The notes: generated by a model from the sequence alone, not told the origin. A DNA stretch of 40,000 bases from Gammaproteobacteria bacterium (GCA_045561295.1 JBJKYD010000015.1:9888-49887), one strand, 5' to 3'; shown: positions 29,854 to 35,048, numbered from the stretch's first letter. Numbers and translations are program-made.

Positions 29854-30184
29854 GAGAGTTAGTTATACAGCTACTATGTTTTACATAGAGGAAAGTCCGG
29901 GCTCCAGGGATAAAAGCGCCAGGTAATACCTGGAAAATGTGAGTTTTGGAAAGTGCTGCAGAAAATAACCGCCTTCATTGAAGGTAAGGGTGAAAAGGTG
30001 AGGTAAGAGCTCACCGCTGATTAGGTAACTAATTAGGCAAAAGTAAACCCCGCTTGGAGCAAGGCAAATTTGTGATTAATCCCAAAATAATCACGTGGTT
30101 GCTGCTTATGAGGTTATTGGTGACAATAACCCTAGATAAATGGCTGTACAAGACAGAACCCGGCTTATCAACTAACTCTCACAT
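29854..30184 (+). ncRNA. rnpB: RNase P RNA, bacterial type A (compact, about 330 nt)
   Basis: Universal elements GAGGAAAGTCCGGGCTCC (29889-29906) and ACAGAACCCGGCTTA (30152-30166) are present, plus GGTAAGGGTGAAA and GGTAAGAGC as in E. coli M1 RNA. The P1 helix is GAGAGTTAGTT (29854-29864) paired with AACTAACTCTC (30170-30180). Confidence 0.9.
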
Positions 30185-30273: not shown

Positions 30274-30302
30274 TTGCAAATAATAAAAATAAGGCATATA
30301 GT
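30274..30302 (+). promoter_or_regulatory. Candidate sigma70 promoter of the dcw operon
   Basis: TTGCAA (30274-30279), a 17-nt spacer, then TATAGT (30297-30302), about 40 nt upstream of the mraZ ATG. Confidence 0.45.
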
Positions 30303-30345
30303 GTTGATAAATGGAATATTTTGTCAATTAGTGGAGAATAATGGA
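30301..30345 (+). promoter_or_regulatory. Candidate MraZ operator: phased nTGKn repeats at exact 10-nt spacing
   Basis: GTGTT (30301), ATGGA (30311), TTGTC (30321), GTGGA (30331) and ATGGA (30341, which contains the mraZ start codon). MraZ is reported to bind direct (G)TGGG-like repeats with 10-bp periodicity near its own promoter. Confidence 0.35.
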
Positions 30346-30802
30346 TAATTTATTTAAAGGTATACATAACATCAACCTTGATTCAAAAGGTAGATTAGGT
30401 ATACCTGTAACCTACAGAGACCATATCACAGGACTTTTAAAAGGCTCTATGGTTATTACCATCGATACTGAAGAAAAATGTCTACTACTTTACCCCTCTG
30501 GTATATGGGCAAAAATACAAAGCAAAATCAATGAATTACCATCATTTAATAAGAACGCTCGAAGAATACAAAGATTATTAGTGGGTCATGCTGAAGATAT
30601 TGATGTTGATTCCTCCGGCAGAATACTTATTTCTAAACCATTGAGAGAATATGCATCATTAGTTAAAAAAATCATTCTTATAGGTCAGGGTGATAAGTTC
30701 GAAATATGGGATCAAAATTTATGGAATCAAAATGTAGATAAGTGGAGAGACGAGGTGACTTCTAATGATGATGCTGAAGCACTAAGTGATATTAGCATAT
30801 GA
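30341..30802 (+). CDS. mraZ: Transcriptional regulator MraZ
   Basis: 153 aa with two SpoVT/AbrB-like halves. The DSKGRLGIP and DSSGRILI motifs match the MraZ duplicated D-x-x-x-R signature. Confidence 0.9.
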   Translation: MDNLFKGIHNINLDSKGRLGIPVTYRDHITGLLKGSMVITIDTEEKCLLLYPSGIWAKIQSKINELPSFNKNARRIQRLLVGHAEDIDVDSSGRILISKPLREYASLVKKIILIGQGDKFEIWDQNLWNQNVDKWRDEVTSNDDAEALSDISI

Positions 30803-30993
30803 TCAATAATAACTATTTCAAAACTCTTGGCGTATCTCCAAATGAAGATTTGGATATTATTAAAAAAGCATTCAAACGCCTAGCATCTAAATATCATCCT
30901 GATAAAAACAATGACAACATTGATGCTCAAAGAATCTTTATAAAAATTACAACTGCATATGAAAAAATAATGGAGTTTAGAAAAAATGGATAA
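30799..30993 (+). CDS. J-domain-only protein (64 aa, DnaJ-like co-chaperone domain)
   Basis: YFKTLGVSPNEDLDIIKKAFKRLASKYHPDKN....AQRIFIKITTAYEKI is a complete J-domain with an HPD tripeptide. ATGA overlap with the mraZ stop and an 8-nt overlap with the rsmH start. Confidence 0.75.
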   Translation: MINNNYFKTLGVSPNEDLDIIKKAFKRLASKYHPDKNNDNIDAQRIFIKITTAYEKIMEFRKNG

Positions 30994-31918
30994 TACATCT
31001 TTTCATATCCCAGTACTGAAAGCAGACTCTATTCATCAGCTAATTACAGATGAAAATGGCATTTACATAGATGCAACTCTAGGCTATGGAGGGCATACAA
31101 GAGAGATTCTCGATTCAACAAGCAAGAAAGCTAGGATATATGGAATAGACAAAGATATTGATGCTATCGAATTTAATTCGAATGAATTATCAGATGAGAA
31201 GAGATTTACCCTAAGACATGGATGTTTTTCTTCTCTTCATGAATACGCGAAGACATGGAACATTTATGGAGCTGTAAATGGGATACTATTTGATTTAGGA
31301 GTTTCATCAGTTCACTTAGATGATGGCGATAGGGGCTTTAGCTTTACTAAAGACGCTCCATTAGATATGAGATTTAATAGATTGGAAGGTAAAACTGTTT
31401 CTGATTACTTGAATAAATTACCAGAAAAAGAAATTGAAAGAATACTCCGAGTGTATGGTCAAGAAAAGTTCTCAAAAAGGATTGCTCGAAATATCATTAA
31501 GTATAGAGAAAAAAACAGAATAACAAATACTTTTGAACTTGTTGATATTATTAATAAATCTGTTTTAGTAAATGATAAGCATAAACATAATGCTACAAGA
31601 TCATTTCAAGCTCTAAGAATATTCATCAATAAAGAATTGGATGTACTAAAGGATGTTTTAGAGAAATCTTTCGATGTTCTTGCACCAAAAGGAAGGCTTG
31701 TATTAATCACTTATCATTCTCTAGAAGAGAGAGTGATTAAAGATTTTCTAATATATACAGATCACTACTTATCAGCGCCAAGAAAAATTCCAATAAAACA
31801 AGATTTTATGGACAAAATGTTTAATTTAATAAAAAAAATTAAGCCATCCGATGAAGAGATTGAAATAAATCCTCGTTCAAGATCGGCCAAAATTAATGTA
31901 CTTGAGAAACAATCATGA
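30986..31918 (+). CDS. rsmH: 16S rRNA (cytosine1402-N4)-methyltransferase
   Basis: HIPVL, YIDATLGYGGHT, FDLGVSS.HLD...RGFSF, PLDMR and NPRSRSAK motifs are present. Confidence 0.9.
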   Translation: MDNTSFHIPVLKADSIHQLITDENGIYIDATLGYGGHTREILDSTSKKARIYGIDKDIDAIEFNSNELSDEKRFTLRHGCFSSLHEYAKTWNIYGAVNGILFDLGVSSVHLDDGDRGFSFTKDAPLDMRFNRLEGKTVSDYLNKLPEKEIERILRVYGQEKFSKRIARNIIKYREKNRITNTFELVDIINKSVLVNDKHKHNATRSFQALRIFINKELDVLKDVLEKSFDVLAPKGRLVLITYHSLEERVIKDFLIYTDHYLSAPRKIPIKQDFMDKMFNLIKKIKPSDEEIEINPRSRSAKINVLEKQS

Positions 31919-32184
31919 ACCTTGGGACAACATTAATATTAATAGTTTTGATTACTGTATCTGCATTTGGCGCTATTTTTGTTAAATATCAAAACAGAAC
32001 ACTTAATATAGAAGTTTCAAAGAATGAGCGAATATTATTTGAAACATCAGAGAGATATAGAGAGCTTTTAGAGCAAAAGGTAAATCTCACTGATAGTAAA
32101 CTTCAAAAGAGCGGTTTAGGTGAAACGCTTGGAATGAGCCTTCCATCTAAAGAAAGAATTTTAATCATGAACTTAAACAATTAG
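31915..32184 (+). CDS. ftsL: Cell division protein FtsL
   Basis: 89 aa. An N-terminal TM helix is followed by a coiled-coil-like segment and a ..LGMSLPSKERI.. tail, as in FtsL. In the position after rsmH, with an ATGA overlap. Confidence 0.75.
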   Translation: MNLGTTLILIVLITVSAFGAIFVKYQNRTLNIEVSKNERILFETSERYRELLEQKVNLTDSKLQKSGLGETLGMSLPSKERILIMNLNN

Positions 32185-32194
32185 GAGGAACACC

Positions 32195-33340
32195 ATGTTT
32201 GAAATAGTAAATAATTATAATCAGAACGCGGTTATCAAAGTCATTGGTGTTGGAGGTGGTGGCGGTAATGCAATCATATCAATGCTTAAGTCCCAAATTC
32301 ATGGAGCTGACTTCATAATTGCAAACACAGATGTTCAGGCATTAAGAGATGTGAGTGGTGCAACTACCGTACAGATTGGTTCTGAAATCACAAAAGGTTT
32401 AGGCGCTGGGGCAGATCCTGAAAAAGGTAAACAAGCAGCATTAGAAGCAAGTGAAATATTAAAAGAGTCTATTGAAGGCGCTGATATGCTTTTTATTGCA
32501 GCTGGCATGGGCGGTGGAACAGGAACTGGTGCAGCACCTGTGATTGCCCAGATTGCTAGAGATCTTGGTATTTTAACGGTTGCTGTAGTAACCAAACCAT
32601 TTGAATTTGAAGGTCCAGAGAGAATGTCTAACGCTCAAGAGGGCATTGATAACCTTGAGCAATGGGTGGACTCACTTATAGTGATACCTAATTCGAAATT
32701 GAAAGAAGTATATGGTGGTGGAGAGTCTATATTCTCGTCATTTGAAAACGCTAATGACGTTCTAAGAGGAGCTGTTAAAGGTATTACAGAGATAATAACT
32801 ATCAGGGGATTCATGAACGTTGATTTTGCTGATGTTAAAACAGTAATGTCTGGGATGGGTAAGGCCATGATGGGATCAGGTGTTTCATCAGGCGAGAATC
32901 GTGCCATCGATGCTGTAACTGCAGCTCTTAGTAGTCCGCTACTAGATAATATTGATCTTCAAGGCGCGAGCGGTGTATTAGTTAATATCACTTCTGGTTC
33001 TGATCTAACTACTGATGAATTCGAGGTTATTGGTAGTAAAATTCGAGAAATAGCAAATGAAGATGCTAAAATTATAACTGGCTGTATTAAAGAAGATGAT
33101 AACATCGGAGATTTACGTGTGACTATTATTGCTACTGGTTTTTCACAAGATAATAAAATAGATGTAAATTCTTCTGAAGTTAACCAAAGCACACAAGAAA
33201 GCACAACTAATAATCCTAGTATTTCATATCCTAGTAATAGTGAAGCAAAAAATGATGCAATAACACAAGTAAATGTTAGTCAGCAGGAAGATCAGACATC
33301 TCTCGATATTCCAGCATTTTTAAGACAACAAGCTGATTAA
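32195..33340 (+). CDS. ftsZ: Cell division GTPase FtsZ
   Basis: IKVIGVGGGGGNA, tubulin signature GMGGGTGTGAAPV, T7 loop NVDFADV, and the C-terminal conserved peptide DIPAFLRQQAD. Strong RBS TAGGAGGA. Confidence 0.95.
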   Translation: MFEIVNNYNQNAVIKVIGVGGGGGNAIISMLKSQIHGADFIIANTDVQALRDVSGATTVQIGSEITKGLGAGADPEKGKQAALEASEILKESIEGADMLFIAAGMGGGTGTGAAPVIAQIARDLGILTVAVVTKPFEFEGPERMSNAQEGIDNLEQWVDSLIVIPNSKLKEVYGGGESIFSSFENANDVLRGAVKGITEIITIRGFMNVDFADVKTVMSGMGKAMMGSGVSSGENRAIDAVTAALSSPLLDNIDLQGASGVLVNITSGSDLTTDEFEVIGSKIREIANEDAKIITGCIKEDDNIGDLRVTIIATGFSQDNKIDVNSSEVNQSTQESTTNNPSISYPSNSEAKNDAITQVNVSQQEDQTSLDIPAFLRQQAD

Positions 33341-33383
33341 TAATCTAAAAAAAAATCAGAACCTGAGGCTGTCATTATTTATA

Positions 33384-35048
33384 GTGGCAGCCTTTCTTGT
33401 TTTGATAATAATAATTTTTAGACTATATCAGATTCAAGTTAATGCAACGGATTGTTTTTATTTTAATAAAGGATCATGCAAAGAGAATATTCTTGAAGTG
33501 GCTGAAAAAAGGCAAATTCATAGTGTTAAACTGACCGCACAAAGAGGAAGTATCTATGATAGAAACAATAATATTTTAGCTATGTCTTTACCAATAAAAA
33601 CTCTTTGCATTAATCCGAGTAGATTATATAAGAGTAACAATAAATCTATTATGGAATTATCTAAAGATCTTGGTTTATCTGAAAAAAAATTAAAACAAAT
33701 TATTTATAAAAATAAAAATAAAAAAGAATTTTATTTGAAAAGACATGTCTCGAAAGATTTTTATTTAAAAATTAAGAGTTTAAATAATCCTAATCTTTAT
33801 TTTATTAATGAAAATAAAAGAAGTTATCTAGGCGGTAAACCTTTTTCAAATATTTTAGGATTTACAAATATAGATGATAAAGGACAAGAAGGTATTGAAT
33901 TCATAAGTAATAAAATTCTATCACCAGAGCATGGATTAAAAAAAGTGAAAAAAGATAATATCGGTCGTCCCATTGAAACAATAGGCATTATAAGAAAACC
34001 AGTCCCAGGCCAAGATGTTTTTCTCACATTGGATAAAAGAATACAAATAATTGCATATGAAACCCTAAGAAAATATATTACAAAATTTAAAGCTGAGAGT
34101 GGCTCTATAATTTTAATTGAATCAAATACAGGCGACATAATGTCAATGACTAACTATCCATCATTTAATCCAGATAGAAGGAGTGAGTTTAGAGGGAAGA
34201 AAATTAAAAACCGGGCTGTCTATGATTTAATTGAACCTGGATCTACTATTAAACCATTGATAATATACTACGGTTTACACAATGAAGTAATTAGTGAATC
34301 AACAATAATAAATACCGCACCAGGCGTTATTCTACTTGAAGATAAAGAAATTAAAGATTGGAAATATTTAGGAAAAGTAAGTCCAAGAGATATTATTAAA
34401 TTATCTAGTAACATCGGAGCAGCAAAAGTCTCAAGTAAACTCTCAAAGAAACAGCTTATAGACGGATTAAATGAACTAGGTTTCGGTCAATCACTATTTC
34501 TAAATTTACCTGGATCAAAAACTGGTTCTTTGCCGCTTTCATCTGAGTTATCAAATTCAGGCCATATGAGTCTCGGTTATGGATATGGTCTCTCAACATC
34601 ACTAATGCATCTTGCAAGTGCTTTTACTACACTTGCTAATTATGGCAACAGGGTACAAATAAATTATTTGAAAAATAATAAAGACTTTAAAAAAGATAAT
34701 ATTTTAAATAGGGATAACTCAATAAAAGTATTAGATATGATGAGAGATGTAGTACATTCAAACGATGGAACAGGAAGGCAGGCTAAAGTAGAAGGATACA
34801 CGGTTTATGGCAAGACAGGTACAGTTAGACAGATTGTAGATGGCAAATATGCAAAAGATAAACATAACGCCTTATTTGTTGGAATACTAGGAGACCCTGA
34901 ACCTAAATATGTTGCTGCTGTCATAGTAAGGAACCCAAAAAATAAGGAAGGCTCTGGAGGTCTTCATGCAGCACCTATTTTTGGCGAATTTATGCAACAT
35001 TCAATGAGAATTTTAAATGATATAAGTTATGCTAATAACAGACAATAA
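33384..35048 (+). CDS. ftsI: Peptidoglycan D,D-transpeptidase FtsI (PBP3); true start probably upstream at a non-canonical codon
   Basis: PBP dimerisation and transpeptidase domains with STIKP (S-x-x-K), SSN (S-x-N) and KTGT (K-T-G). The first canonical start (GTG 33384) lies inside the membrane anchor; see findings. Confidence 0.85.
   Translation: MAAFLVLIIIIFRLYQIQVNATDCFYFNKGSCKENILEVAEKRQIHSVKLTAQRGSIYDRNNNILAMSLPIKTLCINPSRLYKSNNKSIMELSKDLGLSEKKLKQIIYKNKNKKEFYLKRHVSKDFYLKIKSLNNPNLYFINENKRSYLGGKPFSNILGFTNIDDKGQEGIEFISNKILSPEHGLKKVKKDNIGRPIETIGIIRKPVPGQDVFLTLDKRIQIIAYETLRKYITKFKAESGSIILIESNTGDIMSMTNYPSFNPDRRSEFRGKKIKNRAVYDLIEPGSTIKPLIIYYGLHNEVISESTIINTAPGVILLEDKEIKDWKYLGKVSPRDIIKLSSNIGAAKVSSKLSKKQLIDGLNELGFGQSLFLNLPGSKTGSLPLSSELSNSGHMSLGYGYGLSTSLMHLASAFTTLANYGNRVQINYLKNNKDFKKDNILNRDNSIKVLDMMRDVVHSNDGTGRQAKVEGYTVYGKTGTVRQIVDGKYAKDKHNALFVGILGDPEPKYVAAVIVRNPKNKEGSGGLHAAPIFGEFMQHSMRILNDISYANNRQ

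Follow-up and report, generated by a model that had tools for sequence, protein, structure and literature searches.

A J-domain of 64 residues encoded between mraZ and rsmH in an order of streamlined marine Gammaproteobacteria

Few gene junctions in bacteria are as conserved as that from mraZ to rsmH, and to our knowledge the biology of both gene products is still poorly understood. J-domains are the modules which switch on the Hsp70 chaperone DnaK, and their HPD motif is needed for the stimulation of the Hsp70 ATPase. Both subjects meet in a stretch of 40,000 nucleotides from a Gammaproteobacteria bacterium (GCA_045561295.1 JBJKYD010000015.1:9888-49887, hereafter the window), where a bare J-domain reading frame, referred to as mini-J in the following, lies exactly between the two genes. 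This raises the questions of whether such a short reading frame is a gene at all, whether its product can be expected to act on DnaK, and what it might do at the head of the dcw operon. The window is part of an assembly of 1.03 Mb in 19 contigs (G000:C15) and belongs to an order of streamlined marine Gammaproteobacteria with one family and six genera, of which 37 genomes of 0.6-1.2 Mb were examined.

The encoded protein (MINNNYFKTLGVSPNEDLDIIKKAFKRLASKYHPDKNNDNIDAQRIFIKITTAYEKIMEFRKNG) has a computed mass of 7.5 kDa and a computed pI of 9.5. At its upstream end, the TGA of mraZ (30800-30802) shares bases with the ATG of mini-J (30799-30801), and at its downstream end the TAA of mini-J (30991-30993) lies past the ATG of rsmH (30986-30988), giving an overlap of 8 nt. 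A preliminary description of the window had reported this arrangement of a 64-aa frame with an ATGA at the mraZ stop and an 8-nt overlap with rsmH, and it was confirmed from the sequence (Table 1). The ATGA overlap indicates a probable translational coupling of mini-J to mraZ and, since start as well as stop overlap with the adjacent frames, coupling can be assumed on both sides. The GGAG located 10 nt upstream of the rsmH ATG is the putative Shine-Dalgarno sequence of rsmH. Coupling at both ends had been proposed beforehand, and the pattern of overlap or abutment was found to hold in every ortholog measured. In these 30 loci, out of 31 intact ones in all, mini-J starts at -4, -1 or, once, 0 nt relative to the mraZ stop and ends at -1, -4 or -8 nt relative to the rsmH start, taking the conserved start of the latter. 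A programmed frameshift fusing MraZ to the J-domain or the J-domain to RsmH was rejected, because the overlaps (-1, -4, -8), and thus the frames, vary between genera.

Table 1. Features of the mini-J locus in window coordinates.
Feature	Position	Strand	Basis
RNase P RNA gene, class A	29855..30183	+	Rfam RF00010, 273 bits, E 2.6e-88
Candidate promoter-like TTGCAA-17-TATAGT, upstream of mraZ	30274..30302	+	consensus scan
mraZ, 153 aa, first gene of the dcw operon	30341..30802	+	PF02381, 113.8 bits
ATGA overlap of mraZ stop and mini-J start	30799..30802	+	read from sequence
mini-J (bare J-domain ORF), 64 aa	30799..30993	+	PF00226, 60.5 bits; AlphaFold2 pLDDT 89.9; Foldseek; 32/32 assembled loci
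CAT CCT GAT, codons of His33-Pro34-Asp35 of mini-J	30895..30903	+	read from sequence
GGAG, Shine-Dalgarno-like, within the last mini-J codons	30972..30975	+	read from sequence
rsmH, 16S rRNA m4C1402 methyltransferase family	30986..31918	+	PF01795, 331 bits
ftsL, start overlapping the rsmH stop	31915..32184	+	PF04999, 27.3 bits
ftsZ, relocated directly after ftsL	32195..33340	+	PF00091 + PF12327
13-bp hairpin and T-rich run, 24 nt past the ftsZ stop	33365..33394	+	terminator scan
ftsI	from about 33384	+	ORF in window

The common strand, the overlaps in 30/30 orthologs and the terminator scan, which found no + strand terminator-like site between 30183 and 33365, suggest that mini-J is a member of the dcw operon. 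The order of the genes downstream deviates from the usual proteobacterial dcw cluster, in which ftsZ is commonly the last gene. In each of the 29 loci of the order reaching that far, ftsZ is found directly after ftsL, and hence this move is an order-wide rearrangement which co-occurs with the insertion of mini-J.

The affiliation of the product to the J-domains is clear. A comparison with the Pfam profile PF00226, which had been recommended as a check in the preliminary description, yielded a significant match of 60.5 bits (E 1.6e-16) against a cut-off of 27.8, covering profile positions 1-53 of 63. The family profile aligned residues 1-62 to residues 1-62 of E. coli DnaJ without gaps and with 45% identity, and the best match of a profile search in the PDB was the J-domain chain of the DnaK-DnaJ complex 5NRO. 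Mini-J ends where helix IV of DnaJ begins. Likewise, an AlphaFold2 model based on an alignment of 12 sequences (mean pLDDT 89.9) features three helices, with helix I at residues 4-10, helix II at 18-31, the HPD loop at 33-35 and helix III at 41-63; in the model nothing folds back as helix IV. The top 50 Foldseek matches of this model in the PDB were all J-domains, with an rmsd of 1.8 A over 53 columns for 5nro_B. The product is hence a J-domain of which the fourth helix of the four-helix fold is absent. The earlier characterization of the frame as nothing but a J-domain can be retained insofar as the domain stands alone with an intact HPD, but the domain itself is incomplete.

Matches to the NCBIfam models of DnaJ, CbpA, AtcJ, DjlA and HscB were all below threshold and limited to the J-domain, and an assignment to any of these proteins was rejected. 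Scores reached 50-55 bits against cut-offs of 338-377 for class A DnaJ (TIGR02349 / PRK10767), with mini-J having only 64 aa, 41.1 against 403 for CbpA, 29.6 against 162 for DjlA and 15.5 against 189 for HscB. AtcJ (NF050028) was matched with 40.7 bits against 150; mini-J carries no extension and its neighbours are mraZ and rsmH.

An alignment-profile search revealed a short-frame ortholog in 32 of the 37 genomes of the order. The five remaining genomes are 57-87% complete and have no match for rsmH either, and thus the locus is unassembled in them. Mini-J was located between mraZ and rsmH in every locus examined. The survey of related dcw clusters suggested beforehand hence gave the same insert in 32/32 assembled loci. 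An uncultured gamma proteobacterium known from a single-cell genome (AG-390-N19) encodes the same protein with 100% identity over 64 residues and in the same context. The length of the orthologs is 63-66 aa in 31 of 32 cases, the single broken copy being that of G010, which shows an internal stop; as mraZ and rsmH carry frameshifts in the same stretch, the break is attributed to assembly errors. Throughout 28 distinct orthologs, the HPD as well as K22, K/R27, K36, F47, A53, Y54 and I57 show no or almost no variation. Moreover, dN/dS values (Nei-Gojobori) of 0.02-0.1 were obtained for close pairs, and the median over 55 pairs with dS of 0.05-1.5 was 0.24 for mini-J, compared to 0.066 for mraZ and 0.144 for rsmH. 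As these values are well below 1, mini-J is under purifying selection at the protein level, which is weaker than that on mraZ and rsmH.

Judged by its sequence, mini-J is therefore a genuine protein-coding gene. The short frame, the AT-rich genome and the internal stop of the G010 copy could suggest an ORF arisen by chance or a dnaJ fragment in decay. Nevertheless, the Pfam E-value of 1.6e-16, the uniform length of the 31 intact orthologs and a dN/dS well below 1 reduce this explanation to a negligible probability, and the frameshifts of the neighbouring genes in G010 point to errors of the assembly. It was dismissed as already refuted by the conservation data. The same holds for the earlier idea of a relic of a larger gene, which is contradicted by the uniform length of 63-66 aa over six genera, the invariant HPD and the low dN/dS. 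The retention of a third J-protein in every assembled locus of reduced genomes argues for a real selective value of this gene.

Beyond the order, the gene was not encountered at this position in comparable surveys. A search of 400 sampled Gammaproteobacteria from outside the family with the family profile at E <= 1e-19 revealed no mini-J with a short open frame; the lone match corresponded to the N-terminus of a DnaJ of 359 aa, encoded in a genome of 0.3 Mb. In 29 other gammaproteobacterial families, rsmH follows mraZ with no J-domain match between them, which bears out the earlier statement that the two genes are canonically adjacent. The estimated gap ranges from -14 to +63 nt in 27 of these 29 families; the two exceptions, L138 with 127 nt and L146 with 297 nt, hold no J-domain ORF in their long spacers. 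The spacer of about 297 nt in L146 (G064:C4, about 1728-2026) features no convincing ORF of any other kind. A search of all species representatives for the HPDK pattern found mraZ/rsmH beside a short J frame in only four of the best 80 loci, three of them labelled as gamma proteobacterium/Gammaproteobacteria and one as Ectothiorhodospiraceae; these four are taken as members of the same group as the window. The protein database contained 360 short relatives at E <= 1e-10. Among the matches listed (120 of 360), the relatives have 62-70 aa, and the few named ones appear as 'DnaJ domain-containing protein', 'molecular chaperone DnaJ' or 'hypothetical protein'. In agreement with the preliminary description, according to which no J-protein is known to have been described at this position, our literature search found none between mraZ and rsmH.

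In the tree, all 28 distinct mini-J sequences group in a single clade (support 100/99), and a long branch lies between them and the J-domains of DnaJ of the same and of other genomes. Judged by this branch, the evolution of mini-J is much faster than that of the J-domain of DnaJ in these genomes. The insertion is a single event in the ancestor of the order. The branching does not discriminate between a descent from the dnaJ of the order itself and another donor of the J-domain.

Whether mini-J can be expected to act on DnaK depends on the contact surfaces of both proteins. According to a published list of contacts, R22, K26, R27, K48 and K51 of DnaJ pair with acidic residues of DnaK, H33 contacts L391, P34 contacts P419, and D35 contacts R167 and Q378 (PMC8215388). 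Among 28 mini-J orthologs (DnaJ numbering), position 22 is K in all, position 27 is K/R in all, the HPD at 33-35 is invariant, and position 51 is K/R in 27. Position 26 is K/R in 11 and M/L/I in 17 orthologs, while position 48 is I in 24, Y in three and L in one. Since position 48 is never basic, the salt bridge of K48 to D477 in the substrate-binding domain of DnaK is predicted to be lost family-wide; the remaining interface appears to be largely kept. Binding to DnaK may be altered or weaker, as K48 is replaced and position 26 is hydrophobic in 17/28. The orthologs are basic proteins (median pI 9.55), and their K/R-K tail is conserved.

The corresponding partner system is present. The genome carries a grpE-dnaK-dnaJ cluster, hscA beside an hscB-like gene, and rpoH, and J-domain matches across the order comprise only DnaJ, mini-J and a weak HscB-like match. 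The genome's own DnaK, which aligns to that of E. coli with a constant offset of one residue, retains R167, E206, D211, E217, Q378, L391, P419 and D477 and thereby every residue listed as contacted by the J-domain (PMC8215388). As a side observation, this DnaK (G000:C16:43137-45089; L186:138-2090) features Asn at the position of E. coli D481 within the motif TFDIDANG. Asn at this position is presumably the eukaryotic Hsp70 form.

The best reading of these data is that mini-J represents a minimal class C ('JD-only') co-chaperone of DnaK, which would be co-expressed with MraZ, RsmH, FtsL and the relocated FtsZ. That it is a functional, DnaK-activating J-domain hard-wired into the dcw operon, with no particular client implied, is considered probable (about 0.7). 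Such a protein would have been fixed once in the ancestor of this marine order with genomes of about 1 Mb, as a three-helix module equal to DnaJ residues 1-64 without helix IV. It would be transcribed together with mraZ from the dcw promoter and translated by termination-reinitiation off mraZ, passing ribosomes on to rsmH, and would thereby be produced in step with MraZ, RsmH, FtsL and FtsZ. The basic helix II and the HPD loop would most likely dock on ATP-bound DnaK and trigger ATP hydrolysis. As mini-J has neither a client-binding domain nor a tail, any specificity would have to arise from the face which helix IV normally covers or from synthesis beside a partner. First candidates for such a partner would be the coupled MraZ and RsmH, or the 30S subunit as the target of RsmH, followed by FtsL and FtsZ.

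A specific partner encoded in the operon is a speculative extension of this reading, and the odds are somewhat against it. Narrower and distinctly doubtful is the proposal of a dedicated adaptor, which would tie DnaK to a product of the operon head via the surface bared by the missing helix IV, so that chaperone capacity would gate the output of the division operon or the Z-ring. Candidates for the tied product would be MraZ, by remodelling of the oligomeric repressor, RsmH together with the 30S subunit, or the relocated FtsZ. In MraZ and RsmH, no order-specific docking extension was found; MraZ has 153 aa with the usual acidic tail. The earlier suggestions that DnaK is targeted to division or cell wall synthesis, or that MraZ or RsmH is modulated, gained nothing beyond the position of the gene. 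The link of mini-J to division is given by position alone, and the data are just as compatible with a role in RsmH-linked ribosome maturation or with an untargeted one.

In the untargeted case, the client-free J-domain would activate DnaK on nearby proteins or compete with DnaJ, thereby tuning free DnaK and the control of sigma-32, and the slot in the dcw operon would merely provide constitutive, growth-linked expression. This is possible, if on the unlikely side. It is in line with the lack of any extension past the J-domain, with MraZ and RsmH being devoid of order-specific features, and with the presence of rpoH and a full DnaK system in the genome; in addition, the phage protein Rki was reported to compete with DnaJ and to stabilize sigma-32 (PMC3486835). 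However, the effect of Rki needs a C-terminal domain which is absent from mini-J, and the same slot, coupled on both sides, was retained over six genera whose synonymous sites are near saturation, which suggests that the position itself matters. A position-dependent alternative is offered by ribosome maturation, where mini-J together with RsmH would bring DnaK to late 30S assembly intermediates and not to division. The overlap of the mini-J stop with the rsmH start in all orthologs measured, the basic character (median pI 9.55) and the conserved K/R-K tail would suit such a helper, but the evidence is purely positional, mini-J is coupled to mraZ upstream just as much, and the protein contains no RNA-binding domain. 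We regard this explanation as improbable.

The remaining alternatives concern the partner chaperone itself. If mini-J were an Hsp70-independent J-like module (cf. ARC6, DNAJD), it would serve MraZ, RsmH or FtsZ as a small structural partner, and the loss of helix IV and the replacement of K48 would be in line with this. Still, J-like proteins are typically devoid of the HPD, whereas it was kept in 28/28 orthologs along with K22 and K/R27 of the basic helix II, which is the signature of selection for Hsp70 activation. The prospect of such a module is hence faint, even with the precedent of the division protein ZipN/ARC6, whose J-like domain may work without Hsp70 (PMC6391411). Another conceivable partner is HscA, the second Hsp70 encoded in the genome, as the changed position 48 could mirror a different Hsp70 surface. 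Nevertheless, HscA has its own HscB encoded alongside, and mini-J matches best with J-domains of the DnaJ type and weakly with HscB models (E 0.014-0.021), so that a switch of the partner seems very improbable.

A comparison with described J-proteins places the preferred reading, a minimal class C co-chaperone of DnaK, among known forms. Like the J-domain of E. coli DnaJ (5NRO), mini-J has the same N-terminal register, the HPD at 33-35, basic residues at 22 and 27 and the core of F47, A53 and Y54. Unlike DnaJ, it stops at residue 64 and is devoid of helix IV, the G/F region, the zinc finger and the client-binding domains; position 48 holds Ile, Tyr or Leu instead of Lys, the gene is located in the dcw operon and not after dnaK, and the sequences form their own clade on a long branch. 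As to proteins with a J-domain as the sole recognizable domain, the number of known JD-only sequences is approximately 100,000 (Malinverni et al., 2023, PMC10410713), and class C J-proteins were reported from 54 aa upwards (Mayer, 2021, PMC8215388). Mini-J corresponds to these in its domain content. The JD-only category is heterogeneous and mostly uncharacterized, whereas the mini-J family is defined by its fixed, coupled slot between mraZ and rsmH.

A precedent is offered by the cold-adaptation J-protein AtcJ of Shewanella oneidensis, a short class C protein which recruits DnaK to a partner encoded in the same operon; its C-terminal extension of 21 aa binds AtcC and is essential (PMC6715715). 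Mini-J shares with AtcJ the very small size, a J-domain which appears functional from its sequence, and an operon of unrelated genes, but AtcJ features a full four-helix J-domain followed by the extension, whereas mini-J has neither the extension nor atcABC as neighbours. In cyanobacteria and chloroplasts, the division proteins ZipN, Ftn2 and ARC6 feature J- or J-like domains and are linked to the FtsZ machinery; ZipN is a membrane protein of 798 aa which tethers FtsZ, and its status as a true J-domain protein is disputed (PMC6391411). Common to both is the link of a J-type domain to the FtsZ machinery, in the case of mini-J by gene position only, and mini-J differs from ZipN in being soluble, 64 aa long and equipped with a canonical HPD. 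Rki of phage RB43, a class C protein of 237 aa, interacts with DnaK and was reported to be a competitor of DnaJ and not a generic co-chaperone; its activity requires the C-terminal domain, and the protein is toxic when expressed (PMC3486835). Mini-J belongs to class C like Rki, but it has no C-terminal domain and is not phage-borne.

Accordingly, J-domain-only class C proteins as such are a kind already known. Apparently new is that a whole order carries a truncated three-helix J-domain in a fixed, coupled position at its mraZ-rsmH junction. An abundant, uncultured ocean order with genomes of about 1 Mb, which otherwise hold only DnaJ and HscB as J-proteins, keeps an additional J module of 64 codons exactly at this junction. 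If a specific operon partner proved true, mini-J would offer a direct handle on a chaperone state tied to division or 30S maturation and would be the smallest known targeted J-protein. If there is no partner, it would represent a natural case of a free J-domain serving as a DnaK regulator.

The expression unit to which mini-J would belong may be delimited at both ends. The RNase P RNA gene marks its upstream boundary; it is situated directly upstream of mraZ and leaves just 157 nt for the dcw promoter region. Promoter-like sites were no commoner in this region than in shuffled sequence, so that the TTGCAA-17-TATAGT element is a candidate only. Downstream of ftsZ, a strong hairpin with a T-rich run behind it was found in 12/12 relatives (L187-L198) covering all six genera. 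Together with the window, the stems comprise 9-14 bp and are located 21-30 nt past the ftsZ stop; for L197, the automated pick of the longest helix chose another helix, but the hairpin can be seen in the sequence itself. As the stems differ in sequence between genera, they have changed in a compensatory manner. The 5' end of the ftsI frame contains the hairpin; in 13/13 cases this frame opens 0-1 nt past the ftsZ stop, and an in-frame ATG just ahead of the stem is present in only three of the 13. Thus located, the hairpin could act as a terminator or attenuator, or as a translational gate for ftsI, and mraZ, mini-J, rsmH, ftsL and ftsZ may form a partly separate expression unit which is closed by it.

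Two further division genes were considered in the surroundings of this unit. ZipA_C was not found in the window's own genome. Likewise, no ftsA is present in this assembly (G000), where the sole match is a 349-aa MreB-like gene; this absence is probably an assembly gap. The idea that the order lost FtsA, with DnaK and mini-J replacing it, was ruled out, as FtsA is encoded in 33 of the 37 genomes of the order, in G004 approximately 15 kb downstream of mini-J (G004:C3:93676-94779).
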